Of a DNA stretch of 54,998 bases, positions 12,057-30,839 are shown piece by piece. Position 1 is the stretch's first letter; each line of letters begins with the position of its first letter. The stretch covers positions 1-54,998 of the forward strand of contig CAZVMT010000001.1 of assembly GCA_964628765.1 (NCBI GenBank). Reading direction: 5' to 3'. Source of the DNA: an uncultured Candidatus Bathyarchaeia archaeon. GTDB lineage: Archaea; Thermoproteota; Bathyarchaeia; TCS64. The position numbers were made by a program, and so were the translations under genes. The notes below the pieces were generated by a model. That model saw only the letters and a list, made by a program, of their open reading frames with translations. It had not been told where the DNA came from and did no database searches.

Positions 12057-12073
12057 GGCGGCTTCGGTCGCCC
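12056..12073 (+). terminator. UUCG-capped GC hairpin, second copy
   Basis: Identical 18-nt hairpin followed by TTT. Confidence 0.5.
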
Positions 12074-12074
12074 T

Positions 12075-12091
12075 TTCCACATATTGCGGAA
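12075..12091. promoter_or_regulatory. 17-bp palindromic motif, site 2
   Basis: ttccacatattgcggaa. Confidence 0.6.
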
Positions 12092-12108
12092 ATGATGGAG
12101 GATGACAG

Positions 12109-12318: not shown

Positions 12319-12599
12319 ATAAAGTATGGGTGCTAATGAAAGCGGACGATGAAGGCGAACCGGGAAAGACACTTGCGCTTTTTGCATCACTTGAAGATGC
12401 GAAATCATCTATTGAGTGTGAAAAGCCAGGGTTTATTACATCGTATTGGAAGGCTAAAAACGATCGATATGAGGGTGAATACTATGTGGGGTGGATTACG
12501 TCCCGCCCCCTTGCGCGTAAGACGCAATCCATGTATTACATCGTGCCATTGACGGTCGGCTATCACAATATGCAGACTAGTGACGGCGAAAAGGAGTGA
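12315..12599 (+). CDS. Hypothetical protein
   Basis: ATGA overlap and a GGGAG RBS. Confidence 0.65.
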   Translation: MNKVWVLMKADDEGEPGKTLALFASLEDAKSSIECEKPGFITSYWKAKNDRYEGEYYVGWITSRPLARKTQSMYYIVPLTVGYHNMQTSDGEKE

Positions 12600-14176: not shown

Positions 14177-14576
14177 GGGAGTTTTCTCGCTGCTGAGTGA
14201 CAGCCAGTGGCGCTTTGTTGCTGTCATGGTGGCTAACCCTGACTTCACCAAAGCAGACGCGGCCCGCGCCCTCAAGATCAAACCAAACACGGTTTACGCA
14301 TGGCCTGATCATGTCAACGCCGCGATTGAGCAGGCCCGCATCGACGTGCACGAGGCGGCGGTGAATGCCCGCAAGCAGGCGCTGCTCGAAGCGATCCGAG
14401 TCAAGATCGCCGGGCTGCGTTCCAGGAGCGAAAGCATTCGGCAAAAGGCCGCTTCAGAGATCATCGAGTGGGAGCTTGGCAGGGCGTCAACGTCGGTTGA
14501 TGTTACCAGCGCCGGGCAGCAGATAAAGGGCTACATTGGTTTCAGTCCGGATGATTGGGACAATGACAGCGACTAG
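14136..14576 (+). CDS. terS: Terminase small subunit
   Basis: HTH-like segment FTKADAARALKIKPNTVYAW. Lies immediately upstream of, and overlaps, TerL. Confidence 0.6.
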   Translation: MGKTQKTQQKSTSEGVFSLLSDSQWRFVAVMVANPDFTKADAARALKIKPNTVYAWPDHVNAAIEQARIDVHEAAVNARKQALLEAIRVKIAGLRSRSESIRQKAASEIIEWELGRASTSVDVTSAGQQIKGYIGFSPDDWDNDSD

Positions 14577-15822
14577 GTCGGGCATTCTCGCACCGTACAA
14601 GCCGCTGCCCTGGCAGATCGATCCGCTGCGTGACAAGTCCAAGATCGTGCTGCTGAGTGGCAGCGCAGGCGGCGGCAAGTCAAGACTCGCAGGAGAGAAG
14701 TTGCACGCTTACTGTCTCAAGTACCCAGGCGCGACGGCGCTCATGATGCGCAAGACGCGCAAGTCGATGACGAACAGCACGGTGTTATTCATGGAGCGCG
14801 TGGTCATTGGCCTGGGTGCGCCCAACGTGCGGCATGTGTCGAGCAACAGCCGCTTTGAGTACAGCAATGGCAGTCTGCTTGTATACGGTGGCATGGCAGA
14901 CGAGGATCAGCGCGAACAAATCCGCTCGATTGGTATCCAGGGCGGCCTTGACATCGTGTGGATGGAGGAAGCGACTCACTTCCTCGAGAAAGACTTCCAA
15001 GAGATCGCGCCTCGTATGCGTGGGCGTGCCGGGGGGTGGGCGCAAATTATCCTGAGCACGAACCCGGACGGCCCGAAACATTGGATCAATCAGCAGATGA
15101 TCGTCGGGAAAAAGGGCAGCGTCTATTACAGCGGGGCGCTTGACAACCCGCACAACCCGCCGGAGTACATCGAGTGGCTGAACATGCTCACGGGGGTGCA
15201 GCGCCTGCGACTGGTCGAGGGCAAGTGGGTGCAGGCGGAGGGTGCGGTCTACCCGGACTTCGATCCGCTGTACAACGTGACCGAGGACGCCGAATACAAC
15301 CCGGATGTAGGACCGGTGTTCTGGGGTGTGGATGACGGTTATGCTTACGGCTCAGGGCCGGGCACGTCAGGCTATCACCCGCGCGTGATCCTGTTCGGGC
15401 AGATGACGGCGCAGGGCGGGCTGAACGTGTTCAACGAGTATTATCGATGTGGGGTAGCCGATTATTACCAGACTATCGACGATGCGTTTGACATGGGCTA
15501 CCCGCCGCCTGAGCTGTCCTTTGTGGATAGCAGCGCGGCCATGCTGCGCGGGGCGCTGTCACAGCGCAACGTGTACAACGCGGGCGCGACGCACAAGGTA
15601 ACCGAGGGAATCCGCAACCTGCGGCGAATGATATTGGACGGGCAGGGAGTGCGGCTGTTGAAAATACACCCGCGCTGTGTGCAGTTGATCGGGGAGTTGC
15701 AAAGCTACCTGTACAACGAGCGGTCAACGGCTGCGCAGAGTGGGGAGCCGGTTCCGCTCAAACTTGACGATCACGGGCCGGACGCGCTGCGTTATATGGC
15801 GTGGCACCTGAAAAATACGTAA
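14563..15822 (+). CDS. terL: Terminase large subunit
   Basis: Walker A GSAGGGKS, Walker B-like IVWMEEA, and a nuclease-half acidic motif. Confidence 0.85.
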   Translation: MTATRSGILAPYKPLPWQIDPLRDKSKIVLLSGSAGGGKSRLAGEKLHAYCLKYPGATALMMRKTRKSMTNSTVLFMERVVIGLGAPNVRHVSSNSRFEYSNGSLLVYGGMADEDQREQIRSIGIQGGLDIVWMEEATHFLEKDFQEIAPRMRGRAGGWAQIILSTNPDGPKHWINQQMIVGKKGSVYYSGALDNPHNPPEYIEWLNMLTGVQRLRLVEGKWVQAEGAVYPDFDPLYNVTEDAEYNPDVGPVFWGVDDGYAYGSGPGTSGYHPRVILFGQMTAQGGLNVFNEYYRCGVADYYQTIDDAFDMGYPPPELSFVDSSAAMLRGALSQRNVYNAGATHKVTEGIRNLRRMILDGQGVRLLKIHPRCVQLIGELQSYLYNERSTAAQSGEPVPLKLDDHGPDALRYMAWHLKNT

Positions 15823-19487: not shown

Positions 19488-20945
19488 ATGACCGACAAGA
19501 TCACGATCAAGGGTCAGGACTTTGACCCTGAAGTCATCCAGAAGATGATTGACGCGGGGCTGGCATTCGGCACCAAGAACGACCCGGCCTCGACCACGCC
19601 GACCAATGCGCAGTTGCACGGCCCGCTGGCTGACAACTCCGGTAACTGGGGACCGTTCGCGGAACCCGGTATCCGCCCGACGATGCTCAGCGCTATGCAG
19701 CGCCCGAAGTCGTTGTCTGCTGTGCTGCCGCTGATGCAGTCACGCGTGTACAATGAGAAGATCGCCATCATGACCGGCGTCACCGAAGAAGGCGGCACGA
19801 ACGCCGCCAACTGGTGTGGTGACCCGCCCGGCCCCGGTGCGCTGAAAAAGTGCACGCAGTGGTACAGCTTCGGCAAATACTACGTCAAGGACAATCTGGC
19901 GAAGCTGGCCGACATCGGCCTGAGCCGCGACTACAGCGACGTGCCGCGCCAGATTCTCAACGCGGGGCGGGGCGGTGGCCCTGGTGCCACTGGCAACCCG
20001 TTCATCCCCGAATCCGTGTTCATGTTGGCGGACACCTACAGCCTGCTGCGCTATCAGCAGTTCCTCGTGGGCGTGTCGGCTGAGCGCGACATCTGTCACG
20101 TGACCATCCAGGGTAATGCTGCAACGGCTTACACAGCGACGCAGCACGGCTGGATCGGCGAGTTTACTGGCCTCGACAGCCAGATCAAGACGGGCTACAC
20201 GGACCACGACACCGGCCTGACGTGCCCCGCCGCTGACTCGGTGGTTGAGACGTTCAACGCAGCGGTAACGGGCAACAACGACGCCGCCAACCGCACAATC
20301 GTGCAGGTGTGGCAGGACACGATGTTTGCACTCGAAAGCCGGGCAGACGCTGCCGGGCTGATGGGTGTCACGTTCGTCGCGGTCATGCGCAAGGACCTGT
20401 TCTACGCGCTGACGCAGCAGCTGGCCTGCAACTTCTACACCGCCCGCTGCACGTTCTCCAACAACAACGCGCAGAGCCAGGATGCCCGCGACATCGAAGG
20501 GCTGCGACTGGCGATGCTTAACGGCTCCTATCTGCTATACAACGGTATGCAGGTGCCGGTCGTGTTTGATGAATGTATGCCTCGTGAAACCCTGGGCAAC
20601 CAGTACTACAAGAGCGACATCTTCATTGTGCCGCTGTCGTGGCAGGGGATGCCGTTGACCTACTTCCAGTACTTCCCGATGAACAATCAGTACGCGACCG
20701 AGTTTGCGCAGATTCTCGGTTCCGGCGTGCAGTATCTCAACAACGGGTTGTGGCTGGTGGGCAAGCGTGATACGGGTCTGTGCCTCGAACATCACTACCA
20801 GATGATGCCTCGCGTCATCCTGGAAGCGCCGTTCCTGGCCGGACGTATCGACGATATCTTCTACAACTACTATGCTCAGAGCCGCGAGGCCCTGCCGGGC
20901 GAATCGATGTACGCTGACGGCGGCACCTCCTACTACGTGGCATAA
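19488..20945 (+). CDS. Major capsid protein
   Basis: AAGGAGA RBS. 485 aa. Lies directly after the protease/scaffold gene and is followed by a terminator-like hairpin. Confidence 0.65.
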   Translation: MTDKITIKGQDFDPEVIQKMIDAGLAFGTKNDPASTTPTNAQLHGPLADNSGNWGPFAEPGIRPTMLSAMQRPKSLSAVLPLMQSRVYNEKIAIMTGVTEEGGTNAANWCGDPPGPGALKKCTQWYSFGKYYVKDNLAKLADIGLSRDYSDVPRQILNAGRGGGPGATGNPFIPESVFMLADTYSLLRYQQFLVGVSAERDICHVTIQGNAATAYTATQHGWIGEFTGLDSQIKTGYTDHDTGLTCPAADSVVETFNAAVTGNNDAANRTIVQVWQDTMFALESRADAAGLMGVTFVAVMRKDLFYALTQQLACNFYTARCTFSNNNAQSQDARDIEGLRLAMLNGSYLLYNGMQVPVVFDECMPRETLGNQYYKSDIFIVPLSWQGMPLTYFQYFPMNNQYATEFAQILGSGVQYLNNGLWLVGKRDTGLCLEHHYQMMPRVILEAPFLAGRIDDIFYNYYAQSREALPGESMYADGGTSYYVA

Positions 20946-20965: not shown

Positions 20966-20994
20966 ATTGACAGAATGAAGATTTTGCAATAGGA
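20966..20994 (+). promoter_or_regulatory. Sigma70-type promoter of the glycosylation cassette (TTGACA-17-TAGGAT)
   Basis: Hexamers and spacing read directly. The upstream cctaTTGACA context is shared with the 13044 promoter. Confidence 0.55.
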
Positions 20995-21004
20995 TCGAAC
21001 TGAG

Positions 21005-21044
21005 AAACGCAGTCTCTCGCCCCGGTGAGGGGCTGCGTTTTCCA
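21005..21044 (+). terminator. Hairpin with a short T tract (weak terminator or attenuator)
   Basis: AACGCAG...CCCC-ggtga-GGGG-CTGCGTT followed by TTTT. Confidence 0.5.
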
Positions 21045-21065
21045 TATTCGAGGTGAATAAAACCA

Positions 21066-21446
21066 ATGAAACGATATAAAGAATACGACTATTGGCTTGT
21101 TTTTCCCATTGCCAACAATGATATACGCTGGCATTGGAATAAGCATACACACGACTTGTATTTGAATTACAGTACCTCCGATGAATTCTACAAAACCGCC
21201 ACTGTTTGGTATGAAGTATCTCCGCTTGTGCAACGGTTGTATCTTGAAAAGTGGGGCGCTGAATTGTGGCCCCTTATTAAAGATTATGTGTTGATTGTTC
21301 AGGATCACCTTAATCGCAAAACTCACCTCACGCAACCTCTAGGAGTAAAGCACGCTGAGCAGCGTTCAGCAGAGATAATCATCAATGAGATTGTTGATGC
21401 TTTTATGCTGTCGAAAACAGGTATGCACAACGGTTCTGGCCTATGA
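21066..21446 (+). CDS. Hypothetical protein encoded by a low-GC gene
   Basis: Clearly AT-richer than the flanking genes. GAGGTGA RBS. Confidence 0.6.
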   Translation: MKRYKEYDYWLVFPIANNDIRWHWNKHTHDLYLNYSTSDEFYKTATVWYEVSPLVQRLYLEKWGAELWPLIKDYVLIVQDHLNRKTHLTQPLGVKHAEQRSAEIIINEIVDAFMLSKTGMHNGSGL

Positions 21447-22537
21447 TGAATACTACCGTGATCATCCCTGTCGGGCCGAATCACCACGATCTGAGTGTTC
21501 GCGCCATTGCCAGCGTGCAAGATCAGACGACGGCGGCGGCGCTCATTGTCGTGCATGATACCGAGCGGCGCGGCCCCGGATGGGCGCGTAATCAGGGCAT
21601 CGAGCAGGCGGACACGCCGTTCGTGCTGTTCCTGGATGCCGACGACTGGCTCAATCCTGAAGCTGTGCAGCGCCTCGAAGCGGCGGCGGCGGGATGGGAT
21701 GGGTATGTGTATGGCGACTGGATCATCGGGAACGCTGTGCACAAGTCGCCGGAGCCGTGCAAAGCATGGCGGCACGGCACGCGCAACATCGTGACGGCGC
21801 TGGTGCCGACGGTGGCAGCGCGTAAGGTGGGCGGCTTTGATGAGACACTGCCCGGCGGGGAAGATACCGACTTCTACCTCAAACTAATTGCCGCCGGGAT
21901 ATGTGGCAAACACATTGATTACCCCGTCCTCAACTACCGGCCCGAAGGCGAACGCGGGCGGGAGTATGTGGCAAGCGGGGCACGCGACCGGGTACACGCG
22001 CTCATGGATGCGCGTTATGGAGTAAGGGAAATTGTAATGGGATGCTGTGGAAAACCTGATAAGCCGGACACCACGCCGGAGCCGATTGAAAACGGGGTGC
22101 TTGTCACTCCCGTCTGGCGCGGCAATCGAAGAGTTACAGGCGGGGTAACGGGGCGCGACTACGGACGGCAGTCAGCGCCAAAAACATTTTACATCGACAG
22201 GCGCGATCTTGATGCGATGCCGAACATGTATCGCCCTGTGCAGGTCGGAGATGCCGAACCGGAGTCGCTGCTTAACCCAGCCTTCCCGATTGCACGGGGG
22301 CTACCGGCGCTCGGCGACGCTATCTTTGGTGAACGGCGCGAGGCCCCGCAGGGCACGCGCTACACACCGCCAACGGCAGGGCGGCAAGCGCCAGACCTTG
22401 ACGCGGTGATTCGCATGGGGCGCGAAGCGTTGGAAGCGGCGCCAGCGTCGGAACCTGCGCCCAAGCCGAAACGCACGCGCAAACGTAAGGCGACGGCACC
22501 GAAAGCAGAGGTTATTGTCGAGGGTGAGGGTGCATGA
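21443..22537 (+). CDS. Family 2 (GT-A) glycosyltransferase with a C-terminal extension
   Basis: VIIPVGPNHH, LFLDADDWL (DxD) and GGEDTDFY motifs. Confidence 0.75.
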   Translation: MMNTTVIIPVGPNHHDLSVRAIASVQDQTTAAALIVVHDTERRGPGWARNQGIEQADTPFVLFLDADDWLNPEAVQRLEAAAAGWDGYVYGDWIIGNAVHKSPEPCKAWRHGTRNIVTALVPTVAARKVGGFDETLPGGEDTDFYLKLIAAGICGKHIDYPVLNYRPEGERGREYVASGARDRVHALMDARYGVREIVMGCCGKPDKPDTTPEPIENGVLVTPVWRGNRRVTGGVTGRDYGRQSAPKTFYIDRRDLDAMPNMYRPVQVGDAEPESLLNPAFPIARGLPALGDAIFGERREAPQGTRYTPPTAGRQAPDLDAVIRMGREALEAAPASEPAPKPKRTRKRKATAPKAEVIVEGEGA

Positions 22538-22860
22538 AAGTGTACATTGTGCGTGCACGAGTAGTCGATCATCTTTCGCCTATGCCGATAGGCGTGTTTG
22601 ATAATTTCGCGCTGGCGAAAAGCGAGCTTGTCAAATTTCTTGAGGCCATGTTTCCCGGTTACGAATGGCTGAACTGTGGAAACACGTTCCCTGCCCCCTG
22701 GCTTGCAGTGGAACGGGTGGGGCCCGGCACAGAAAGCACTCTAATAAGATATGGAGACATCAAGGGGGCAGTTATGAACGAGTTAATGTCCGATGCTGCC
22801 GATTGGGTGCGTCTCAAGCCAGAACTTGACAGCATGGCAGAAAGAGCGAAACGTGACTGA
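22534..22860 (+). CDS. Hypothetical small protein (lower GC)
   Basis: ATGA overlap with the upstream gene. Confidence 0.55.
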   Translation: MKVYIVRARVVDHLSPMPIGVFDNFALAKSELVKFLEAMFPGYEWLNCGNTFPAPWLAVERVGPGTESTLIRYGDIKGAVMNELMSDAADWVRLKPELDSMAERAKRD

Positions 22861-23665
22861 CGAAATCGTCTTTGTCCGCACGCGCCACGAATACGCCAGC
22901 TATGCCGACCTATGGCGGCTTGTCGAGCTAACCGGCTTCCCGCTGATCTACCCTGACGAGGTGCCCACTCAGGCACCGGATACCACGTTTATCATCACGC
23001 CCGCCAACGGCGAGTGGCGTGACTGGCCCGAAGATCACACGACCGGGCATATCGTGTTTTGGAATCTGGAATGGGGCAAGGGCGATCCAATCCCCTGCGC
23101 CAATGAGGTGTGGACTTCGGATGCATGGCACGCTGAGCGCATCGGGGCGCGGTTCGTGCCGTTTGGCAGCCACCCCGATCTATGCCCAACCGAACGCGCC
23201 GACGCGCCCGACTACGACGCGATCCTGCTGGCCTATCGCAACTGGCCCCGGCAGGTTGCGGAGGGCGCGCTTATTGACGCGGGGCTGACGGTTGCGCCGG
23301 ATGGGTGGGGCGAACACCGCCGGGATATGTTGGGCCGGACGCGCTGTATGGTGAACGTACACCAGCATCAGATCATGCCGGAACACTGGATTGAAGAAGA
23401 ATATCCCTGCGTAGCGGCGCAGCGGTTCGCGGTGGCGGCTTCGGCGCGGATTCCGCTGATCGGCCAGACCATGTACAACCCGCTGCCGTTTATTCCGGGC
23501 CTGCATTTTATCCCGACTGCCATGCCGTTTATTGCTAATGTTGTGGCATCCCTCACGCCACAGCGCGGCGAAGAACTGGCGCGGGCCATGCACCTGCTGC
23601 TGTGTGAGCAGCTTCGATTTGACAAGGTGGTCAAGGCTGCGGTTCGGGGAGGAGTAGAGGTATGA
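22853..23665 (+). CDS. CgeB-like/GT-B C-terminal-domain glycosyltransferase (putative)
   Basis: MVNVHQHQ...AAQRFAVAASARIPLI resembles the CgeB/Glyco_trans_1_2 core. Confidence 0.45.
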   Translation: MTDEIVFVRTRHEYASYADLWRLVELTGFPLIYPDEVPTQAPDTTFIITPANGEWRDWPEDHTTGHIVFWNLEWGKGDPIPCANEVWTSDAWHAERIGARFVPFGSHPDLCPTERADAPDYDAILLAYRNWPRQVAEGALIDAGLTVAPDGWGEHRRDMLGRTRCMVNVHQHQIMPEHWIEEEYPCVAAQRFAVAASARIPLIGQTMYNPLPFIPGLHFIPTAMPFIANVVASLTPQRGEELARAMHLLLCEQLRFDKVVKAAVRGGVEV

Positions 23666-23931
23666 AAGCAACAGTTAATCTGTTTTGGGTCGTGGTCAAG
23701 GCTGAGCCGAAAATTAAAGGCTCATACCAATTTTTTCGCGCTGGCCCGCTGTATTTTGATGAGGTATTCAGAACCCGCGCCGCTGCAATCGAGCGCCTTA
23801 GAAGCAACCGCGACGGCGATCTGCTCTTCAAGGAAGAGGAAATCGTTATTGTCGACAATACTGCCGCATTCCTCATGCTTTATGAAACAGGTGCATTTTT
23901 GATTAAGCCCCTGTTGGAGTTTTCAGAATAA
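23662..23931 (+). CDS. Hypothetical small protein (lower GC)
   Basis: ATGA overlap with the upstream gene. Confidence 0.55.
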   Translation: MKATVNLFWVVVKAEPKIKGSYQFFRAGPLYFDEVFRTRAAAIERLRSNRDGDLLFKEEEIVIVDNTAAFLMLYETGAFLIKPLLEFSE

Positions 23932-24683
23932 TGAAAATCATCGCTTTCACCGCTCTTCACTACGGTATGGACTACCTCGACGCGGCGATCCGGTCGGTCG
24001 CGCCATTCGTGCACGAGTGGTACTTTGCCTACTCTCCGGTTGGCAGTCACGGCACGCGCACCCACACGGTATGCCCGGAGTCAGAGTCGATGTTACGCGC
24101 CGAAGCTGAGCGGGCGTTTTCCCGCTCCCCGCTGCAACGTGGCTTCGATTACGCATGGTATACACAGGACTGGAACCACGAGGGCGAACAGCGGGACAGC
24201 GTGTATACCATGTGCCCCGACGCCGATCTGATCATCGTTGTGGACGCTGACGAGGTATGGGCACCGGAAGCGGTCGCGGATGCAGTCAGGGCAGGCGCGG
24301 CGCAAACGACGCATGACGGTCTGCTCCCGTTCTGGCACTTCTGGCGCTCGTTCGGGTGGTACTGCACAGATGGGCATCGCCCGGTACGGCTGATTCGCCC
24401 TGACATGCCTGCTGGCAACACGTACCACGACCTGCCGCCCGTATACCACTTCGGTTATGCGCAGCGCTTAGAGATTGTGCGCTACAAGATCGGGATACAC
24501 GGGCACCGGACAGAGTGGCGCAATGACTGGCTGGCGCGGTTCGAGGCGTGGACCCCGGCGGGGCCGCACAATGATCTGCATCCGGTGGTGTATGATTTCT
24601 GGACGGCGCGGCCATTTGCCAAAGAGCAGATGCCCGCCGTGCTTGCGGAACATCCGAACTATGGAAAGGGAATTGTTAGATGA
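23931..24683 (+). CDS. GT-A-like glycosyltransferase (putative)
   Basis: N-terminal beta-strand MKIIAFTALHYG and a DxD motif, IIVVDADEVW. Confidence 0.5.
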   Translation: MKIIAFTALHYGMDYLDAAIRSVAPFVHEWYFAYSPVGSHGTRTHTVCPESESMLRAEAERAFSRSPLQRGFDYAWYTQDWNHEGEQRDSVYTMCPDADLIIVVDADEVWAPEAVADAVRAGAAQTTHDGLLPFWHFWRSFGWYCTDGHRPVRLIRPDMPAGNTYHDLPPVYHFGYAQRLEIVRYKIGIHGHRTEWRNDWLARFEAWTPAGPHNDLHPVVYDFWTARPFAKEQMPAVLAEHPNYGKGIVR

Positions 24684-25210
24684 CTAGATTTGCCATATTC
24701 TTATATCTATCGGGGCAAACAAGGATTGTCGGTTATCCAGAAGGCTTTGAAGAAGTCTACACGACTGTGCCGACCGCAGAATTATCCAGGGGCGTCATTC
24801 TCGATCTAGATAGGTTTGACCAAAGCGCTGATGATTTATTCAATGAATTCAAGCAAGGGGCGCGGACCTTTGGCGGACCTTTGGCTGAATTGCCGTTTAT
24901 TCTGGATAATGACGGGCTGGATTTCGAGAAGCGTATTATGTGGTTTGACGGCTTGGCTTTCACCCTCATTCCTATGTGGGCTGATGAAGTTCCGGGCCTT
25001 AGTATCGACCATGAAAAATATCGTAGTGGGGATATTGAATCTCATCCTAAGGCCAAGATACACTTTGAGCGCCCGCTAACGCTCGAACGAGATGACGGCG
25101 AAACCATACTAAGAATGCACTCCGAGACACGATATATCGAAGCGGGTCCCAAAACAGACGCCTTTATCGCCGAGCAAAGGCAGCACAATAAAGAGAAGGA
25201 TAACGAATGA
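24680..25210 (+). CDS. Hypothetical protein (lower GC)
   Basis: ATGA overlap with the upstream gene. Confidence 0.55.
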   Translation: MTRFAIFLYLSGQTRIVGYPEGFEEVYTTVPTAELSRGVILDLDRFDQSADDLFNEFKQGARTFGGPLAELPFILDNDGLDFEKRIMWFDGLAFTLIPMWADEVPGLSIDHEKYRSGDIESHPKAKIHFERPLTLERDDGETILRMHSETRYIEAGPKTDAFIAEQRQHNKEKDNE

Positions 25211-26103
25211 CCGACATGAACATTCTAATCGCTGGATTACATCACCGCGTAGGCACTGCCCGCTACATGACCGACGCTTTTGAGCGCCTGGGTCATGACA
25301 CCCGACACATCGGCTACCTGCCCGGCAACGACAACCCCGCCGACTCTAACCGCTGGCTGCCACAGGGCGACTGGCACAAGGCGTGGGAGGGCTGGACGCC
25401 GGACCTCGTGCTCTACATCGACACGATCTACCACACGTACCAGCACAACGTATACGGCAGCGTGCCCCACGTGACCGTGTGCACGTGTAACAACGTCTGC
25501 AACATGAGCACGACCAAGCATGCGCATTATTTTGTCGCCCACAAGCACAGCGAAGAGTGGCCGCTCGAAGGGCCTGATATGTCATGGATGCCCTGCGGCT
25601 ACGATCCGGCGCTGCACACGCCGAGTCCGATTGCATGGAGCAAGCGCGAATATGACATCGCTGTCGTGGGAGCAGGCACGGACCCGCGCCGGGAATACGT
25701 GGCAGCGCTGCGCGAAGCCGGGTTGTCTGTGCTGTTCGAAAGTGGCGTGTACTTCGAGGCTTACGTAGACGCCTACCACAACAGCCGCATGAGCCTCTGC
25801 GTCAACGTGTACAAGTCGCCCATGATGCGCTATTTTGAGAGTGCGGCGATGGGCTGCCTGATCATCGGAGACAACAGCCCGGACCTTGTCGATCTCAAAG
25901 CGCGGGGCATGGTGGGCGTAGACAGCGCAGTGGAAGCGGTAGAGCAGGCGCAGTATTATCTGGCCCACGCAAAGGAAGCCAACGCCATGATCAAGCAGGC
26001 GCAGCGGTGGGCCGCACGCAAGGTAAACGGCGTCCCGGCGCATTCGTGGGATGCACGGGCGCAGCAGATTGTCGATTGGTACAAGGAGGCATACGGTGGC
26101 TGA
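25207..26103 (+). CDS. CgeB-like glycosyltransferase
   Basis: SLCVNVYKSPMMRYFESAAMGCLIIGD plus a C-terminal helix pattern as in the CgeB family. Confidence 0.55.
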   Translation: MTDMNILIAGLHHRVGTARYMTDAFERLGHDTRHIGYLPGNDNPADSNRWLPQGDWHKAWEGWTPDLVLYIDTIYHTYQHNVYGSVPHVTVCTCNNVCNMSTTKHAHYFVAHKHSEEWPLEGPDMSWMPCGYDPALHTPSPIAWSKREYDIAVVGAGTDPRREYVAALREAGLSVLFESGVYFEAYVDAYHNSRMSLCVNVYKSPMMRYFESAAMGCLIIGDNSPDLVDLKARGMVGVDSAVEAVEQAQYYLAHAKEANAMIKQAQRWAARKVNGVPAHSWDARAQQIVDWYKEAYGG

Positions 26104-26788
26104 TATTATCCGCTGCACATCAGTGCACGACGCGCTGGCGCAGATTAACGTGACGTTCGGGATCGACGGCACACCATACCCCGACGAGGATCATTACACT
26201 GGGTGGGATTACGGCAAGGGGCAATTCCACAGCGGGGCAATTTTCGGCGTCGAGGGGCAGGTATTGTATTCGCTGGTTCGGGCGCTAGAAGCTGATACGA
26301 TTTTTGAAATTGGCCCTGCTACAGGATGCAGTAGTACGCATATTTTGGCCGCGCTGAAAACAATCGATAGCAAGCGCTTGTATTCAGGGCTTACTAGCGC
26401 TGATTTGCGAGAAGATGCAGGCAGCGAAATTCCCTATGAACTGCGCGGGCATTTTCGATTAACAGTAGAAAGCGGTGTAACAATGTTGGACGAATGGGAA
26501 CAAGAATGTATTGGGCATAGACAACCATATCCCATTATCGACATGGTATTCGACGACAGTTCTCACCTTCGCCCCGACGTTGCCGCCCATGCCGAGTACA
26601 TCAAGCGCCTACTGCGCCCCGGCGGCGTCTACGTTGTGCATGACGTGGCCCACCCGATGCACCGGGACAACGTGCAAGGCGGGCTGGCTGACGCGGGCCT
26701 GCTGGATGCCATGCTGCTGCTGTTGATCGAACCTGCCGACACCGGGATCGGTGTGTGGCGTAAGCCGCTTGGAGAGTATGATGCCTAA
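26096..26788 (+). CDS. Class I SAM-dependent methyltransferase
   Basis: AAGGAGG RBS before GTG 26096. Motif I IFEIGPATGCSS, plus VFDDSSH and GGVYVVHD. Confidence 0.7.
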   Translation: MADIIRCTSVHDALAQINVTFGIDGTPYPDEDHYTGWDYGKGQFHSGAIFGVEGQVLYSLVRALEADTIFEIGPATGCSSTHILAALKTIDSKRLYSGLTSADLREDAGSEIPYELRGHFRLTVESGVTMLDEWEQECIGHRQPYPIIDMVFDDSSHLRPDVAAHAEYIKRLLRPGGVYVVHDVAHPMHRDNVQGGLADAGLLDAMLLLLIEPADTGIGVWRKPLGEYDA

Positions 26789-27080
26789 AATAACAGATAC
26801 ATCATATAAAATCTATTGTGATGAAATTCCCGGACATGAAATAATGACAAAACAAGAGATAAGAAGAGCTTGTTATAAACAAGCGCATCAAGAGATAGAG
26901 GGCTATCTTCGCGGCAGTTGGTGGCCCTTGCATTCTGGAAATAATTCACAAATAGATATAGGTTATTGCTTTCCGCTAGGTATGCCTATCCCCGCAGATG
27001 AATTGATAAGAATGGGGTACACGCAAGAAGCGAAGCAAAAAACAGAAGTAGAAATATTCTGGGGAAAAAGAAACTCATGA
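26778..27080 (+). CDS. Hypothetical small protein encoded by a low-GC gene
   Basis: Markedly AT-rich. Overlaps the end of the upstream gene. Confidence 0.55.
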   Translation: MMPKITDTSYKIYCDEIPGHEIMTKQEIRRACYKQAHQEIEGYLRGSWWPLHSGNNSQIDIGYCFPLGMPIPADELIRMGYTQEAKQKTEVEIFWGKRNS

Positions 27081-28786
27081 TCACTGTATCTATTGTGTCA
27101 GGCACCTACAATCGCATCAATCACCTGACCGCCATGCTCGACAGCGCCCGCCGCTCTCTGCCTGCCGGGGTGCCCTATGAATTCGTGATTGTGGATGGGG
27201 GCAGCACGGACGGCACGCTCGACTACCTGCGGCGCCAGTCGGACGTGGCGCTAATCGAGCACGGTGAACTGCGCGGCGCAATCCGCGCATTCTGCGACGG
27301 GGCACAGGCGGCAAGGGGTAAGTACGTGCTGCTGGCGAATGACGATGTGACATTCCGCCCCTACGGGATCGCGGCGGCAATCGCACACCTCGACGATAAT
27401 CCCCACTGCGGCGCGGTGGCATTTCGTGACAACCGGCCCGCGCCCGGCTACCCGCACGGCGTGTACAAGACACAGACGACGGCAGTCCGGCTGGCGAACG
27501 GCAAGCGGTCGCACGTGACGTTTGCTCAGGTCGGCCTGTTTCGCCGCTGGCTAGGCGATGCTGTGGGTTGGTGGGGGGCAGATGATCCAGTTATGGGCGT
27601 GTCGCGCACGTATGGCGGGGACAACTTCCTGAGCGCCCGTATTTGGGAGGAAGGCTACACAGTCGAGGAAGTGACATTCGCTGATGTGACCGATCATGTT
27701 GCCAACGACGACCTGCGGCACAACAACACGGCGCATACCGGCGGCATTCACCCTGACAGCAAGGCATTTCGGGACCGCTTCCCTGACGGCGCGATCCTGC
27801 CCGCTGTGTCAAAGGTCGCCAGTGACCCGCGCCCACTGCGCATTCTGTACCTGTCAATCTACGAGCCGCATACGCTGCAACACACAACCAAGCGCGGTTT
27901 GCGGCAGGCGCTCAAACTGATCGGCCTCGTGTGGGAGGTGGACTACCTCAACAGCAGTATGGACCTTGCTCACGTGGTCAAGGCATGGCAGCCGGACTTG
28001 GTGCTGAGCCAGTTCCACGATGGCAGAAATGTCACCGCCGATAAGCTGGCGTATATCCGTAAGTTGTCCCCACATTCGACCTGGGTCAACTGGTCGGGGG
28101 ACGCGCGGGGACTGTTGGAGCCGGAATATATTGACCTACTGACCCATGTCGATCTGCAACTGGTCGTTAATGCCAGCGTGTTGGGTAATTATGCGGAAAT
28201 GGCAATTCCTGCGTCATTCTGGCAAGTCGGCTATGAACTACCGCAGTGTGAATTGCCCGATGTGCCGCCCTATGATGTGGTGTTCCTCGGCAACAACACG
28301 AACGCCCACCGCGCCGAAATGGTGGCCCGACTGCGGGCGATCTCTGGCATCGCGTTCGGGCTATACGGGGCGGGGTGGCAGGATGCAGATGGGCAGTGTC
28401 TATATGACTTCGCCACCGCTTGCGCCCTGCATCGCTCGGCGCGGATTGTGATCGGTGATACATTCCCCGACACATGGGGTTTTGTCTCTAATCGTATGGT
28501 TCAAGTGTTGGGCGATGGGGCGTTTTTGCTGCATGAACGGATCGCGGGTCTAACGGAACGTATGGGGGTTGTACCGGGCGAACATTACGCCGACTGGGCT
28601 GACCTCGACGATCTTGAAGCGCAGATCGCCTACTGGCTACAACCCGAACAAGACGCGAAGCGCAAGCGTATCATGCTTGCGGGACAGGCGTTTGTACAGG
28701 AACGGTACGTATTCGACGCGCTGGTGCGGCAGTTGTTCGATGACCTGCTGCCGATGATCCGGCAAGGACAGAGGGAAACAGCATGA
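27077..28786 (+). CDS. Two-domain glycosyltransferase (N-terminal GT2, C-terminal CgeB-like)
   Basis: SIVSGTYNR...FVIVDGGSTDGT...LANDDV in the N-terminal half. VSNRMVQVLGDGAFLLHE...LEAQIAYWL in the C-terminal half. Confidence 0.75.
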   Translation: MITVSIVSGTYNRINHLTAMLDSARRSLPAGVPYEFVIVDGGSTDGTLDYLRRQSDVALIEHGELRGAIRAFCDGAQAARGKYVLLANDDVTFRPYGIAAAIAHLDDNPHCGAVAFRDNRPAPGYPHGVYKTQTTAVRLANGKRSHVTFAQVGLFRRWLGDAVGWWGADDPVMGVSRTYGGDNFLSARIWEEGYTVEEVTFADVTDHVANDDLRHNNTAHTGGIHPDSKAFRDRFPDGAILPAVSKVASDPRPLRILYLSIYEPHTLQHTTKRGLRQALKLIGLVWEVDYLNSSMDLAHVVKAWQPDLVLSQFHDGRNVTADKLAYIRKLSPHSTWVNWSGDARGLLEPEYIDLLTHVDLQLVVNASVLGNYAEMAIPASFWQVGYELPQCELPDVPPYDVVFLGNNTNAHRAEMVARLRAISGIAFGLYGAGWQDADGQCLYDFATACALHRSARIVIGDTFPDTWGFVSNRMVQVLGDGAFLLHERIAGLTERMGVVPGEHYADWADLDDLEAQIAYWLQPEQDAKRKRIMLAGQAFVQERYVFDALVRQLFDDLLPMIRQGQRETA

Positions 28787-29082
28787 CAATCACACTCCCC
28801 CTGCTTGACTTGCTGCTGCTGGTATTCGCCACGTGGCGGATATCTTACCTGCTCGTGCACGAGGCCGGGCCGGGTAACGTGTTCCGCCGTCTGCGGGACC
28901 GCTTCCCGGCAGAGGGGCGCGGTGGCATCGGTGACGCGCTGGCCTGCGTCTATTGCACATCGGTATGGGTAGGCACGGCGCTGTTCATGCTGTGGCTCAC
29001 GCCGCTGTGGTGGCTGATCATCCCGCCTGCTGTGTCGGGCATGGCGATCATGTTGAGCACGTATACGGGAGTGGATGTGTGA
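28783..29082 (+). CDS. DUF1360-like small membrane protein
   Basis: ATWRISYLLVHE...CVYCTSVWVG pattern and 3 hydrophobic helices. Confidence 0.5.
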   Translation: MTITLPLLDLLLLVFATWRISYLLVHEAGPGNVFRRLRDRFPAEGRGGIGDALACVYCTSVWVGTALFMLWLTPLWWLIIPPAVSGMAIMLSTYTGVDV

Positions 29083-29083
29083 T

Positions 29084-29320
29084 ATGAGATTCACAATTAG
29101 CAGAACGTCATTGGCTACCGGATTAGGCACAAAATGCAAGTCGCAACCATGCCCGGAAGCCATAGAGGGTACCGATGGCTTGTGGTATATTGACTTCCCC
29201 GCTGCTGAGGATGTATTGGCCTTTCTCCAAAAATATGATGAGTGTCTAGTCAAATGGGAGCCGAACCCCCACCTGTCACCATATCCGCTTATTGACATCA
29301 ACGACGAGCATTATTTTTAG
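29084..29320 (+). CDS. Hypothetical small protein
   Basis: Start lies adjacent to the upstream stop codon. Confidence 0.5.
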   Translation: MRFTISRTSLATGLGTKCKSQPCPEAIEGTDGLWYIDFPAAEDVLAFLQKYDECLVKWEPNPHLSPYPLIDINDEHYF

Positions 29321-29336: not shown

Positions 29337-29364
29337 TTGACAGCGTTACTAGTTGTGGTATGAT
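29337..29364 (+). promoter_or_regulatory. Sigma70-type promoter of the head-tail/tail operon (TTGACA-16-TATGAT)
   Basis: Hexamers read directly from the sequence. Confidence 0.6.
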
Positions 29365-29421
29365 CAGAGTGCGTTAGACAATTGAGCAAATGCCCCGCAC
29401 CGCCTGCGGGTAACACCGGAG

Positions 29422-29470
29422 GCCCCCGGTAAACCAGAGTATCGGTTTCGGGGGCTTTTTGTTTTGGGTG
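29422..29470 (+). terminator. Leader terminator just upstream of the first tail-module gene
   Basis: GCCCCCG..AAACC-loop-GGTTT-CGGGGGC followed by TTTTTGTTTT. The gene ATG is at 29475. Confidence 0.8.
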
Positions 29471-29474
29471 ATAC

Positions 29475-29972
29475 ATGCATCTAACTGTGACATACAACGA
29501 ACGCAAAGCGGCGATTTTCAACCTGACTGACAGCCGGGCGCTATCTCGCGCTGTGGCGAAACACGTCGAACGTACAATCGCGCCAGCGGTTGAGCGCCGC
29601 ATGAATCGCACGCTGCAATTTTTGCCCGGCAAGCCGAAGTATCCGATCCGGTGGGCCAGCGACAGACAGCGTCGTTATGTGATGGCGATGCTCAGGAAAC
29701 AGGGCAAAATACCATATAAGCGCAGCGGGAAATTGGCACGAGGCTGGCAGGTTCTATCGGCATTTGATGCCAAGACGGACGGCGGATCGCTGACCGTTGA
29801 CAACCCGGCAAGCATCGCCAAATACGTGTATGGCCCTGAGCAGCAGCCGTTCCACCAGGACACCGGCTGGCCCGATTTCGCCGAGTGGGTAGATCAGGAG
29901 CGGGAGCGCGCCGTCAATGACCTAATGGGCGTTTGGCCCGACATCCTGATAGACGCCCTGGATTTAGGGTAG
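29475..29972 (+). CDS. Putative head-tail joining/virion protein
   Basis: Assigned by position. No motif recognised. Confidence 0.5.
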   Translation: MHLTVTYNERKAAIFNLTDSRALSRAVAKHVERTIAPAVERRMNRTLQFLPGKPKYPIRWASDRQRRYVMAMLRKQGKIPYKRSGKLARGWQVLSAFDAKTDGGSLTVDNPASIAKYVYGPEQQPFHQDTGWPDFAEWVDQERERAVNDLMGVWPDILIDALDLG

Positions 29973-29981
29973 GGGGCTATT

Positions 29982-30839
29982 ATGGCCTATGCGACATTAA
30001 GCGACGCCAAGCTAGAGTTGGATACAACCGCGACCACCGACGATACAACGCTGCTGCGGTTTCTTGACATTGCTTCGCGGCGCATTGACAACATTCTCGG
30101 CTTTCCATTGGAGCCGCGCATTATGACACGCCGTTTTTTCCTGCGGTCCGATCTTGTCAATTCGCGGCTTGGCAATCTGTACCTGGACATGCCAATGCTG
30201 GCATTGACTGCCGTCACCGTCTACAACACGGCGCTGACAATCGGAACCAATGTCGAGTTGTGGCCGAGCGGCTTTGTGCCCTCAACTGTGCTGCACCTCA
30301 AAAGCACGGAATACGACTGGTATCGCACGTGGTACGACAGCAGCTACAGCGCCATTGTGACCGTCACGGGGCTGTGGGGGTATCATCCTGATTACGACTA
30401 CGCGTGGCAGACCGAGGACCTTGTTAAAGACGCAGCCGGAATCAGCGCCAGTGTCAACGAGATCACGGTTACGGACGCGGACGGCGCAGACTGGCTCGAC
30501 AGAACGCCCCGGTTCAGCGCCGGGCAACTGCTGCGCATCGAGGCCGAATACGTGCGGGTTACGGCAGTGGATACGACCACTAACAAGATAACCGTGCGGC
30601 GCGGGGTGAATGGCTCAACTGCCGCCCTCCATGCGCTTGACACGCCGATTTACGTCTATTCGTGTGATGACGTGATCCGGCATGGCGTGGCGCGACAGGC
30701 GGGGTTGCTCTACAAACGCCAGGGCGCGTTTGACCAGCCGCAGGGAGACTTTGGCGGGATCGCTTACCCGTCCGATCTGCTGGCTGAACTTCGCGACATC
30801 CTACAGGGTTATGCCATGCCGAACGAGGCGTATTTATGA
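29982..30839 (+). CDS. Head-tail connector (gp6-like N-terminal domain) protein
   Basis: N-terminus ATLSDAKLELDTTATTDDTTLLRFLDIASRRIDNILG matches the head-tail connector pattern. Confidence 0.6.
   Translation: MAYATLSDAKLELDTTATTDDTTLLRFLDIASRRIDNILGFPLEPRIMTRRFFLRSDLVNSRLGNLYLDMPMLALTAVTVYNTALTIGTNVELWPSGFVPSTVLHLKSTEYDWYRTWYDSSYSAIVTVTGLWGYHPDYDYAWQTEDLVKDAAGISASVNEITVTDADGADWLDRTPRFSAGQLLRIEAEYVRVTAVDTTTNKITVRRGVNGSTAALHALDTPIYVYSCDDVIRHGVARQAGLLYKRQGAFDQPQGDFGGIAYPSDLLAELRDILQGYAMPNEAYL

Follow-up and report, generated by a model that had tools for sequence, protein, structure and literature searches.

A conserved glycosyltransferase and methyltransferase operon beside the major capsid gene of an uncultured tailed phage lineage

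Layout of the operon and its flanks

The window analysed here, the whole stretch of 54,998 nucleotides, comprises the genome, complete at 55 kb, of an uncultured phage. Between its major capsid gene and its head-tail genes lies a single gap-free, translationally coupled operon of 13 genes (21066-29320), which starts 120 bp past the capsid gene and leaves zero intergenic space, neighbouring genes overlapping by 1-11 nt (ATGA among others) or standing 1 nt apart. Seven of the genes are enzyme or conserved-core genes; the other six are ORFans of low GC that encode small, soluble proteins. The features are given below; L001 is the closest of the related metagenomic loci.

19488-20945, + strand: major capsid protein, HK97 fold (AlphaFold2 and Foldseek)
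20967-20995, + strand: sigma-70-like promoter TTGACA-17-TAGGAT upstream of the cassette (10/12 consensus matches)
21019-21043, + strand: GC-rich hairpin with T-run, terminator-like (stem largely conserved in L001)
21066-21446, + strand: s126, accessory ORFan of 126 aa, GC 0.417 (open-frame P=0.00005)
21443-22537, + strand: GT2 (GT-A) glycosyltransferase (Pfam Glycos_transf_2, 1.6e-12)
22534-22860, + strand: s108, accessory ORFan, GC 0.511 (no family match in Pfam, PHROG or NCBIfam)
22853-23665, + strand: e270, CgeB-like putative glycosyltransferase, GTG start (family-level profile support)
23662-23931, + strand: s89, accessory ORFan, GC 0.463 (no family match)
23931-24683, + strand: e250, GT-A (GT2-like) glycosyltransferase (family-level support, invariant motif)
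24680-25210, + strand: s176, acidic soluble ORFan, GC 0.469 (open-frame P<0.00005)
25207-26103, + strand: CgeB-like glycosyltransferase, Glyco_trans_1_2 (Pfam PF13524, 7.6e-16)
26096-26788, + strand: class I SAM-dependent methyltransferase, Methyltransf_24 (Pfam, 3e-10; gene kept in relatives)
26778-27080, + strand: s100, accessory ORF, GC 0.38 (no Pfam match)
27077-28786, + strand: bifunctional glycosyltransferase (Pfam GT2, 7e-18, and PF13524, 7.5e-11)
28783-29082, + strand: DUF1360 small membrane protein, 2-3 TM segments (Pfam, 2e-5; phrog_781)
29084-29320, + strand: s78, accessory ORF, GC 0.468 (orthologue in L001)
29337-29364, + strand: sigma-70-like promoter TTGACA-16-TATGAT with upstream TG, downstream boundary of the cassette (11/12 matches)
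29393-29465, + strand: leader with two hairpins upstream of the head-tail genes (sequence and folding)
29475-30839, + strand: first head-tail genes, 165 aa and 285 aa (Pfam PF04883; phrog_442)

The initial annotation had sited this block within the late structural operon, with the capsid gene on one side and head-tail genes on the other, and this siting holds. Every ORF that it listed is present at the coordinates given, and homologue alignment backs its internal GTG starts at 22853 and 26096. The alternation in GC that it described is also real: enzyme genes have a GC of 0.55-0.63 (mean 0.604), versus 0.38-0.51 (mean 0.453) for the small ORFs, whose GC3 is 0.34-0.51 versus 0.60-0.79.

The AlphaFold2 model of the capsid protein, built on a 60-sequence alignment, has a pLDDT of 86.1 and a pTM of 0.81. 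Its top 50 Foldseek matches in the PDB are all HK97-fold shells of phages, a GTA, satellites (P4, PICI) and encapsulins, the best with E 3e-9 and probability 1.00. The GC3 of the gene, 0.817, is the genome maximum. The protein has no long S/T-rich tail, and positions 473 and 481, near the C-terminus, are S or T in 60/60 homologues. On the other flank, the 165-aa protein is HK97 gp10-like (PF04883 at 8.7e-4, under Pfam's gathering score). The 285-aa protein (29982-30839) matches a head-tail adaptor PHROG (phrog_442, 4e-8), and its C-terminal region matches PHROGs of large virion structural proteins. These head-tail genes lie directly 3' of the cassette in relatives too.

Promoter-like sites were scored by matches to a sigma-70-like consensus. 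Within 18-33 kb the site at 29337 scores best and that at 20967 second, and both hexamer pairs are identical in L001 while their spacers diverge. The upstream promoter-like site reported earlier is present, with its start at 20967 rather than 20966, and the one that had been taken as the downstream boundary stands. The hairpin at 21019-21043 sits between the first promoter and the first cassette gene. The leader before the head-tail genes folds at -39 kcal/mol with a z of only -1.8; its second hairpin has an intrinsic-terminator-like stem and T-run. The leader is kept in L001, where differences in the two arms leave the second stem paired in an alignment read by eye.

Enzyme families and conservation of the block

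Profile searches place the enzymes in glycosyltransferase and methyltransferase families, upholding the family calls made previously. The GT2 enzyme (21443-22537) also matches the glycosyltransferase phrog_14775 (3.8e-15); its C-terminal half is outside Pfam, with a K/P/A-rich tail, and the gene is kept in relatives. Neither e270 nor e250 has a direct Pfam match. The former resembles the C-terminal half of a GT-B enzyme: hhalign matches its family profile to the CgeB-like part of the fusion protein at 81% probability (E 1.2e-5), and Glyco_trans_1_2 (PF13524) is matched by 4 of 57 family members. It recurs in each locus that has this region of the cassette, the most distant one, L011, among them. 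Among the homologues of e250, 23 of 83 match Glycos_transf_2 and 5 match GT17; the motif D105-x-D107-E108 (DxDE) is invariant, and in the PDB the family profile matches the flagellin O-GlcNAc transferase GmaR (9.5e-6). For the enzyme at 25207-26103, a window-type orthologue was detected in L001 and L002 only, the two closest relatives. The methyltransferase is probably an O-methyltransferase, judging by weak PDB matches to an O-methyltransferase of family 3 (0.0024) and to demethylmacrocin O-methyltransferase (0.017).

The fusion gene at 27077-28786 is the signature gene of the cassette. It encodes an N-terminal GT-A (GT2) domain and a C-terminal complete GT-B (CgeB/GT4-like) domain, and its product, with at least 822 metagenome homologues, is modelled by AlphaFold2 at pLDDT 95.2 and pTM 0.92. 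Foldseek matches include the two-domain synthases PmHS2 and K4CP, BshA and MshA, polypeptide GalNAc-transferases (ppGalNAc-transferases) to the GT-A half, and a methylmannose-polysaccharide mannosyltransferase to the GT-B half. In viral models, the closest structural neighbours are multi-domain and CgeB-like glycosyltransferases from giant viruses, which glycosylate their own capsid fibrils. The DUF1360 gene follows the fusion gene in most relatives, and its product alone among the cassette proteins has several clear TM segments.

In related metagenomic loci that carry the capsid gene, the enzyme core lies directly downstream of it in 10 of 10 (L001, L002, L003, L004, L006, L007, L010, L012, L015 and L016), a set that includes loci retrieved via the capsid protein and not via a glycosyltransferase. 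The cassette had been described as inserted, perhaps as a mobile unit. We find the block syntenic and vertically conserved across the neighbourhoods of the relatives compared, and the word "inserted" misleads, since the block is an ancestral feature of the entire lineage, one of uncultured, widespread, tailed phages of 45-56 kb. Natural fusions join GT2 to e270 (L012, L003), e270 to e250 (P0249), GT2 to e270 and e250 (P0243) and a fusion-protein-like enzyme to e250 (P0325), so that the enzymes behave as one functional unit. Some relatives carry nucleotide-sugar enzymes in the same block, as expected of a glycan-building locus: an RmlD-like enzyme and a DegT aminotransferase in L011, and NTP_transf_3 in L014. 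In L011 the core lies away from this capsid gene, with a Dam methylase about 4 kb upstream. Among 50,697 cultured-phage records, the cassette enzymes have no counterparts except weak generic GT2 matches.

Small ORFs at the enzyme junctions

It is unlikely that the six small ORFs arose as open frames by chance, since each has an open-frame probability of 0 to 0.014 in shuffles and 5 of 6 are called identically in public gene sets. None is conserved in any relative more distant than L001. There, s126 (nothing in Pfam, PHROG or NCBIfam) has a diverged positional orthologue (33% identity, z=20), s100 a partial diverged one (z=11.8) and s78 a clearer one (49% identity, z=34). At the junctions of the other three, L001 has unrelated ORFs instead, of 120 aa for s108 and 85 aa for s89, and s176 also lacks relatives in INPHARED and IMG/VR.

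These ORFs had been proposed as interleaved partners of the enzymes. They could serve, for instance, as acceptor adaptors or chaperones, the alternation itself then being a functional design. Strict alternation, ATGA-overlap coupling with each enzyme gene and interleaving of a similar kind in the seven genomes compared speak for this. Yet the three replacements in L001 occurred between enzymes that are 60-75% identical, and the 156 non-core ORFs (mostly small) of 12 loci show homology only between the closest genomes. The cassette of L012 is compact, most of its enzyme junctions having no small ORF, and the site of s108 is the point at which other phages fuse GT2 and e270. The small ORFs are also compositionally foreign in GC3. 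Other low-GC ORFs of this genome are HNH/NUMOD4 homing endonucleases, and nucleases lie inside or beside the cassette in some relatives. We consider a partner role very unlikely. As judged by sequence comparison, the small ORFs are fast-turnover accessory ORFans that settled in the enzyme junctions, translationally coupled and outside the enzyme machinery.

Proposed function and comparison with known systems

We believe, with somewhat better than even confidence, that the cassette glycosylates virion proteins, the capsid being the likeliest of them, and does so late, in the cytoplasm and step by step; a methylated glycan is a plausible product. Virion glycosylation is the best fit because the core adjoins the capsid gene in all ten loci, the enzymes are soluble and lack detected lipid-carrier machinery, and protein O-glycosyltransferases are among their nearest solved relatives. 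Direct cytoplasmic glycosylation fits because no cassette enzyme has a TM segment and Pfam, PHROG and NCBIfam searches find no flippase, oligosaccharyltransferase or Gtr-type component among the cassette proteins. A pathway confined to the cytoplasm offers no evident task for the conserved DUF1360 membrane protein at the block end, which counts against this reading.

We infer the timing, acceptor, glycan chemistry and division of labour as follows. As part of the head-assembly region of this lineage, the module would be transcribed late alongside the structural genes, with transcripts starting at its own conserved promoter, reading through from the capsid gene, or both. Soluble cytoplasmic enzymes would draw on SAM and on nucleotide sugars of the host. 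GT-A catalytic domains occur in 21443, in 23931 and in the N-terminal half of 27077, and GT-B/CgeB-like domains in 22853, in 25207 and in the C-terminal half of 27077, three of each kind. With methylation by the O-methyltransferase-like enzyme (26096), they may build a methylated oligo- or polysaccharide stepwise, straight on Ser/Thr residues of virion proteins. For elongation the best candidate is the two-domain fusion enzyme, and for chain modification or capping the methyltransferase. The predicted acceptor is most likely the major capsid protein encoded immediately upstream. We found no pointer to the acceptors suggested before, the portal-MuF linker and the PT linker of the SH3b protein, and the capsid C-terminal S/T positions are at least as good.

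The enzymes could instead act in the infected cell on a glycan that is not part of the virion, making or remodelling a free or envelope-associated (methylated) polysaccharide, or modifying the host surface polysaccharide. This might, for example, prevent superinfection, hide receptors or help release, with the DUF1360 protein as the membrane link. Such a role would suit the conserved small membrane protein that closes the block, the methylmannose-polysaccharide match of the GT-B half, the best structural matches of the fusion enzyme, PmHS2 and K4CP, and sub-threshold NCBIfam matches to exopolysaccharide, teichuronic-acid and colanic-acid glycosyltransferases. We nevertheless regard it as unlikely: all cassette enzymes are soluble, and the family searches detected neither a priming polyprenol-phosphate transferase nor a flippase, polymerase/ligase, ABC exporter or Gtr-type component. 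The block is tied to the capsid gene in the ten relatives, inside the late structural operon, and is not near integration or immunity genes; Pfam finds no integrase in the ~50 larger window ORFs (the ~20 smaller ones lay outside the scan). Observations against the virion reading remain the likeness of the fusion enzyme to polysaccharide polymerases, the core of L011, which lies apart from this capsid gene with a Dam methylase upstream, the lack of a long S/T-rich tail on the capsid protein, and the lack of detectable homology to the actinophage virion-glycosylation enzymes.

Phage glycosyltransferases are classically DNA-modifying, and the cassette might glycosylate and methylate phage DNA bases against restriction, as in T-even or other glycan-hypermodified phages. 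Diverse viral glycosyltransferases are reported to hypermodify DNA (Pyle et al. 2024, as cited in a passage of PMC12619734). A YhhQ/Vut_1-like queuosine-precursor transporter gene at 51478-52035 of the window hints at some base-modification biology, and L016 and L011 have DNA methylases near their packaging genes. This explanation is highly improbable, however, given that the block is in the head module and not the replication module and that no thymidylate-synthase-like hydroxymethylase or other base-modifying enzyme was detected in the cassette or in the larger window ORFs. The glycosyltransferase affinities are with protein and polysaccharide enzymes, a T4-type DNA glucosyltransferase is absent from the top 50 matches whether the PDB or viral models are searched, and the methyltransferase is like small-molecule/sugar O-methyltransferases, unlike DNA methylases.

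Returning to virion glycosylation, the heparosan and chondroitin synthases of the PmHS2/K4CP type, which the fusion enzyme most resembles in structure, make free or lipid-linked polymers, and demethylmacrocin O-methyltransferase, to which the cassette methyltransferase is weakly similar, is a macrolide enzyme. To our knowledge, virion glycan coats have so far been shown for only a few phages of actinobacteria. The cassette enzymes have no detectable homology to the enzymes that glycosylate actinophage virions. According to passages of PMC12619734 and PMC11600133 that cite Freeman et al. (2023), capsid and tail-tube subunits of mycobacteriophages receive C-terminal glycans from phage glycosyltransferases, and in cluster O mycobacteriophages an O-methyltransferase gene adjoins three glycosyltransferase genes.

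Genome context and layout of the cassette

The first 55 bp of the 54,998-bp window are repeated exactly at its other end (1-55 and 54944-54998), which shows that a complete phage genome has been assembled and closed, in circular or terminally redundant form. Searches for near-identical DNA and by tblastn, with the cassette, its fusion protein (27077-28786) and the capsid protein among the queries, found no counterpart, as DNA or as protein, in 50,697 records of cultured phages, and because of this we place the phage in an uncultured lineage. MAG-bin labels of Chloroflexi and Gammaproteobacteria, attached to the only two matches in genome collections (contigs of 7 kb and 53 kb), were rejected as evidence of a host, as the contigs resemble binned phage DNA. 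Apart from the terminase, the tRNA and a few further features, the window is nearly blank to Pfam and PHROGs. Features placed outside the cassette include:

772-843, close to the left genome end, the only tRNA, a tRNA-Thr (anticodon TGT)
14536-15822, large terminase (PHROG 2, 6e-33), followed by proteins of 767, 444 and 485 aa
47045-47599 and 50483-51007, both on the minus strand, homing endonucleases with NUMOD4 and HNH domains, low in GC (0.44 and 0.48)
51478-52035, minus strand, Vut_1 (PF02592, 2e-9), a YhhQ-like queuosine-precursor transporter domain

The two NUMOD4 and HNH ORFs are consistent with the low-GC fraction of the genome being mobile or foreign DNA.

The 485-aa protein encoded at 19488-20945 belongs to no family that could be found by sequence (Pfam, PHROGs, and profile search against the PDB), and its identity therefore had to come from structure prediction. 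An AlphaFold model built from a 60-sequence alignment (pLDDT 86.1, pTM 0.81) was compared with the PDB using Foldseek, and the top 50 matches were all HK97-fold shells, namely phage, GTA and P4/PICI satellite capsids and encapsulins (probability 1.00, E from 3e-9). This identifies the protein as the HK97-fold major capsid protein. A glycine-rich insertion in it (GRGGGPGATG, residues 161-170) is present only in the window and in its closest relative, L001. Downstream of the cassette lie a 165-aa protein with an HK97-gp10-like match slightly under the Pfam gathering score, a 285-aa protein that matches a head-tail adaptor PHROG, and more structural genes, a run that ends with a 785-aa protein at the usual position of a tape measure, for which no family match was obtained.

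The initial annotation correctly placed the cassette between the capsid and head-tail genes, and every ORF that it listed is present. The 13 genes are packed end to end from 21066 to 29320: at ten junctions the genes overlap by 4-11 nt (ATGA and others), at another by 1 nt, and at the remaining one they are 1 nt apart. True gaps, of 120 bp and 154 bp, are found only at the cassette ends. In order, the genes are:

21066-21446, small ORF s126
21443-22537, GT2 enzyme (PF00535, 48.1 bits against a cut-off of 23.3 bits) with an LDADD motif
22534-22860, small ORF s108
22853-23665, e270, a probable CgeB-like enzyme
23662-23931, small ORF s89
23931-24683, e250, a predicted GT-A enzyme
24680-25210, small ORF s176
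25207-26103, CgeB-like Glyco_trans_1_2 enzyme (PF13524, 7.6e-16)
26096-26788, Methyltransf_24, a class I SAM methyltransferase (PF13578, 41.4 bits against a cut-off of 26.3 bits)
26778-27080, small ORF s100
27077-28786, fusion of GT2 (PF00535, 65.5 bits against a cut-off of 23.3 bits) and Glyco_trans_1_2 (PF13524, 7.5e-11)
28783-29082, DUF1360 membrane protein of 99 aa (Pfam), the sole membrane protein of the cassette
29084-29320, small ORF s78

The alternation in GC that had been noted between enzyme genes and small ORFs is real and strong (0.55-0.63 versus 0.38-0.51), and at third codon positions the values are 0.60-0.79 for the enzyme genes and 0.34-0.51 for the small ORFs. The two promoter-like sites proposed for the cassette ends proved to be the best in the 18-33 kb region. 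The two cassette boundaries (20967-21043 and 29337-29465) share an odd layout, a near-consensus sigma-70 promoter followed by a conserved GC-rich hairpin and T-run before the next gene. At both sites the hexamers are kept exactly in L001 and the spacers have diverged; within 29393-29465 there are two hairpins, and L001 changes on both arms of the terminator stem preserve pairing. Neither boundary leader matched Rfam, and the second gap is missing from another relative, L002. With promoter, terminator and late genes in that order, the layout is reminiscent of lambda PR'-tR' (Q antitermination), or else of a short leader or a small RNA, approximately 95 nt long.

Enzyme families and interleaved small ORFs

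Pfam places five of the cassette genes directly, as initially annotated. To place e270 and e250 we relied on deeper family alignments rather than on 8-sequence profiles: an exhaustive HMMER search with a concatenated e270 and e250 query yielded 581 homologues, which were then divided into the two families. The e250 protein of the window does not itself match the GT2 family profile, and its assignment comes from its relatives. Among 83 e250 homologues, 23 match Glycos_transf_2 (best 6.7e-8) and 5 match GT17, the residues D105-x-D107-E108 are invariant, and the family profile aligns across the DxD region with GmaR, the Listeria flagellin O-GlcNAc transferase (9.5e-6). We therefore read the GT-A assignment proposed for e250 as borne out at the level of family sequence. 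The CgeB-like assignment of e270 stands as probable: in hhalign, the profile of its 57 sequences pairs with the CgeB-like part of the fusion protein at 81% probability (E 1.2e-5), and weak PF13524 matches occur in 4 of 57 family members, which suggests a GT-B-type enzyme.

The fusion protein, in whose family N88-D89-D90 is invariant, gave an AlphaFold model of high confidence (pLDDT 95, pTM 0.92) that predicts a GT-A domain at the N-terminus and, C-terminal to it, a complete GT-B domain. Structure comparison of the whole protein with the PDB found the two-domain glycan synthases PmHS2 and K4CP as neighbours; the GT-A half is close to polypeptide GalNAc-transferases and SpsA, and the GT-B half to the methylmannose-polysaccharide mannosyltransferase (ManT), BshA and MshA. 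Among viral proteins, its structural neighbours come from giant viruses and uncultured tailed phages, and are multi-domain and CgeB-like GTs; actinophage enzymes are not among them. In total, the cassette holds three GT-A and three GT-B/CgeB-like domains (six GT catalytic domains in five genes) together with the methyltransferase. The latter has weak PDB matches to O-methyltransferases, a macrolide O-methyltransferase among them, and sugar O-methylation is only suggested as its substrate class. All of the enzymes are predicted to be soluble.

The six small ORFs could have been chance frames in AT-rich spacers, an explanation that we ruled out. Each of the frames would be open by chance in only 0 to 1.4% of shuffles and the other frames are stop-rich; the ORFs are coupled to their neighbours, purine-rich RBS-like sequences lie ahead of their starts, and public gene sets call five of the six identically. 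These features argue that they are genuine genes. No match was found for them in Pfam or PHROGs (six tested) or in NCBIfam (four tested), they have no relatives in INPHARED, and s176 and s126 have none in IMG/VR.

Comparison with relatives indicates how these genes behave. In L001, whose enzymes are 60-75% identical to those of the window, s126, s100 and s78 have strongly diverged positional orthologues, and unrelated ORFs replace s108, s89 and s176 at the same junctions. Lower-GC, non-homologous ORFs lie between enzyme genes in seven genomes, and the 156 non-core ORFs of 12 loci have no mutual similarity except among the closest genomes. The cassette of L012 is compact, with no small ORF at most junctions and with GT2 and e270 fused where s108 sits. 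We conclude from these sequences that the small ORFs are probably compositionally foreign accessory genes with fast turnover at the gene junctions of the operon, and that they do not appear to be obligate partners of the enzymes. The earlier suggestion of interleaved partners thus loses its footing, with three of six exchanged in L001 and most junctions empty in L012.

Conservation and variation in related phages

Homologues of the fusion protein number at least 822 in metagenomes, many of them on contigs of 45-56 kb, and we compared 16 related loci. In all ten loci that carry this capsid family (L001, L002, L003, L004, L006, L007, L010, L012, L015 and L016, the last two retrieved by the capsid protein), the enzyme core lies directly 3' of the capsid gene on the same strand. 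It also directly precedes the same head-tail genes wherever the contig reaches that far, except in L004. GT2, e270, the methyltransferase and the fusion protein are almost always part of the core, and e250 and DUF1360 are present in most loci. The one case in which the core does not adjoin this capsid gene is the most distant locus, L011, where no member of the capsid family is found over a distance of 10 kb and where there is a Dam methylase upstream.

The initial annotation had regarded the cassette as an insertion, possibly a mobile unit. We rejected a mobile insertion because the position is kept in every relative that carries this capsid gene. The cassette belongs to the head module by ancestry and has been passed on vertically with it.

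Natural fusions also tie the cassette enzymes to one another. These join GT2 to e270 (L012 and L003), e270 to e250 (protein P0249), all three (P0243), and a region like the fusion protein to e250 (P0325). The GT2-e270 fusion is a single gene of 593-595 aa (L012 5384-7171; L003 1761-3542), and in the window s108 occupies exactly the boundary between the two domains. This arrangement suggests either that an insertion at the s108 site split one gene into two, or that two genes became joined when the insert was lost.

The edges of the locus vary. An orthologue of the CgeB-like gene at 25207 is found in the two closest relatives only, and a second methyltransferase is present in L001, L002, L014 and L015. 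Extra cargo within or next to the cassette in L014 (5823-9937) comprises an NTP_transf_3 nucleotidyltransferase, a T5orf172/MUG113 nuclease-like gene and a 112-aa RecA_N fragment, and in L015 an HNH endonuclease (11648-12343) lies between the capsid gene and the cassette. L011 (5951-12715) encodes a 904-aa fusion enzyme with a third GT domain (Glyco_tranf_2_4), and carries RmlD-like and DegT/EryC1 aminotransferase genes between e270 and e250; the cassette of the window itself holds no nucleotide-sugar synthesis genes. This variation would fit a glycan-building locus whose product differs between relatives. As a separate observation, a 919-aa portal-region protein in L016 (3769-6528) has an ADP-ribosyltransferase exotoxin domain (PF03496) and a weak Phage_portal match.

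Proposed function and comparison with known systems

The enzymes are predicted to be soluble, and searches of the cassette revealed neither a polyprenol-phosphate primer nor a flippase, an oligosaccharyltransferase, an exporter or a Gtr component. The simplest model is that they glycosylate a phage protein step by step in the cytoplasm. Late in infection the enzymes would draw on host sugar donors, and methylation would modify or cap the glycan. The major capsid protein is the proposed acceptor, since the cassette universally adjoins its gene. Candidate sites are positions 473 and 481, 13 and 5 residues from the C-terminus, which are occupied by S or T in each of the 60 homologues, and the near-invariant motif K-N-D-P-A-S-T-T at residues 30-37, in a low-pLDDT segment of the N-arm; the conservation of either could equally reflect assembly contacts. 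The acceptors put forward initially, a portal-MuF linker and an SH3b linker, are not specially supported: no other stretch in the 23 larger structural or late ORFs scanned is as rich in S/T/P as the SH3b-like linker, but nothing links it to the cassette.

The main alternative is that the enzymes make a non-virion polysaccharide or remodel the host surface. The fusion enzyme, whose fold is polymerase-like, and the conserved DUF1360 membrane protein speak for such a role, which we nonetheless consider improbable, because export and lipid-carrier machinery is missing and the cassette is locked to the capsid gene. Seroconversion cassettes of the Gtr type combine a GtrA flippase, a bactoprenol-linked GtrB and a polytopic GtrC near the integration module of temperate phages; here, Pfam and NCBIfam matches included no Gtr family, DUF1360 is the only membrane protein, and no integrase domain was found among the window ORFs scanned. 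DNA glycosylation is very unlikely. No dCMP/dUMP hydroxymethylase or similar enzyme, of the kind that provides the acceptor base for T4 alpha/beta-GT and for other hypermodification pathways, was detected in the cassette or the larger window ORFs, the family affinities are wrong, and such systems sit with DNA-metabolism genes, whereas the cassette sits in the head module. The Vut_1/YhhQ-like gene at 51478-52035 does make some DNA modification possible, perhaps of the 7-deazaguanine type and separate from the cassette.

From gene content and synteny we infer lineage-wide, capsid-linked glycosylation, and tentatively offer a fuller reading. In a globally distributed, uncultured lineage of approximately 55-kb HK97-fold tailed phages, a fixed assembly line of six GT domains and an O-methyltransferase in the head module may build a methylated heteroglycan coat directly on the capsid, a possible counterpart of giant-virus particle glycosylation that would have evolved independently of the actinophage systems; the gene junctions would be a preferred landing site at which unrelated low-GC ORFans are repeatedly captured and exchanged.

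To our knowledge, phage virion glycosylation has been demonstrated only in a few actinobacteriophages, where it alters antibody recognition and is relevant to phage therapy. If our reading is true, particle glycosylation would be a lineage-defining trait of an abundant environmental phage group, carried out by a much larger enzyme set that is unrelated in sequence to known systems. The glycan would differ among relatives as methyltransferases and nucleotide-sugar enzymes are gained and lost, and would influence how stable the phage is, how it adheres to mucus or particles, and how it evades recognition by hosts or predators; the soluble GTs would provide a defined set for capsid glyco-engineering. 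The interleaved ORFans would be a clean natural example of an accessory-gene turnover hotspot within an essential late operon. A lineage-wide capsid-linked module outside the actinophages, with ORFan-capturing junctions, would be noteworthy to specialists.

Several characterised enzymes offer partial likenesses. GmaR is, like e250, a soluble GT-A, and under the proposed model each modifies a structural protein that polymerises, either ahead of assembly or while it proceeds; however, the two are remote homologues over no more than part of the catalytic domain, and GmaR adds a single GlcNAc whereas the cassette implies a multi-sugar methylated glycan. PmHS2 (Pasteurella) and K4CP (E. coli) have two catalytic domains per polypeptide as the fusion protein does, in the combination GT-A with GT-A rather than GT-A with GT-B. 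The mycobacterial methylmannose-polysaccharide pathway (ManT and O-methyltransferases) shares with the cassette a GT4-like GT-B domain and accompanying methyltransferases. PmHS2, K4CP and the methylmannose-polysaccharide enzymes make free polysaccharides, and share no significant sequence identity with the fusion protein.

Functionally, the nearest known system is actinophage virion glycosylation. As cited from Freeman et al. 2023 (Cell Host Microbe) in PMC11600133, PMC12619734 and PMC13313380, the capsid and tail-tube subunits of mycobacteriophages (Che8, Corndog and Myrna) are decorated by phage-encoded GTs, which is proposed in some cases and shown in others; cluster O also encodes an O-methyltransferase, the sugar donors are those of the host, and the pathway needs no lipid carrier. 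PMC12619734 and PMC11600133, citing Freeman et al. 2023, locate the glycans at the C-termini of these subunits. Such systems are characterised by phage-encoded GTs, with or without an O-methyltransferase, that are co-located or co-expressed with structural genes, and the cassette lies between capsid and head-tail genes on the same strand in 10 of 10 relatives. The actinophage systems have 2-4 genes, whereas the cassette has six GT domains in five genes, a methyltransferase and a membrane protein, and unlike them keeps its place immediately 3' of the capsid gene throughout an uncultured lineage. In tblastn searches against the 50,697 phage records, the fusion protein and five of the remaining enzymes had no match, and one enzyme gave weak generic GT2 matches to Arthrobacter phage Atuin (1e-8) and Streptomyces phage KimJongPhill (9e-5), at 32-34% identity over approximately 140 aa. 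Because homology to the characterised actinophage GTs and O-methyltransferase was not found, we file the cassette as one that would work like these systems and not as a member of them.

Architecturally, the models place the cassette closer to the enzymes with which giant viruses (Mimiviridae and relatives) autonomously glycosylate their capsid fibrils. These are eukaryotic dsDNA viruses with a double-jelly-roll capsid, whereas the cassette phage is a 55-kb HK97-fold tailed phage, and the likeness extends no further than fold and architecture (identities of 7-18% in the top 50 matches). Multi-domain GT-A/GT-B and CgeB-like GTs of giant viruses are nonetheless the best viral structural neighbours of the fusion protein, nucleotide-sugar enzymes are added in the cassette relatives L011 and L014, and both kinds of virus would encode their own multi-enzyme glycan pathway for the particle surface.
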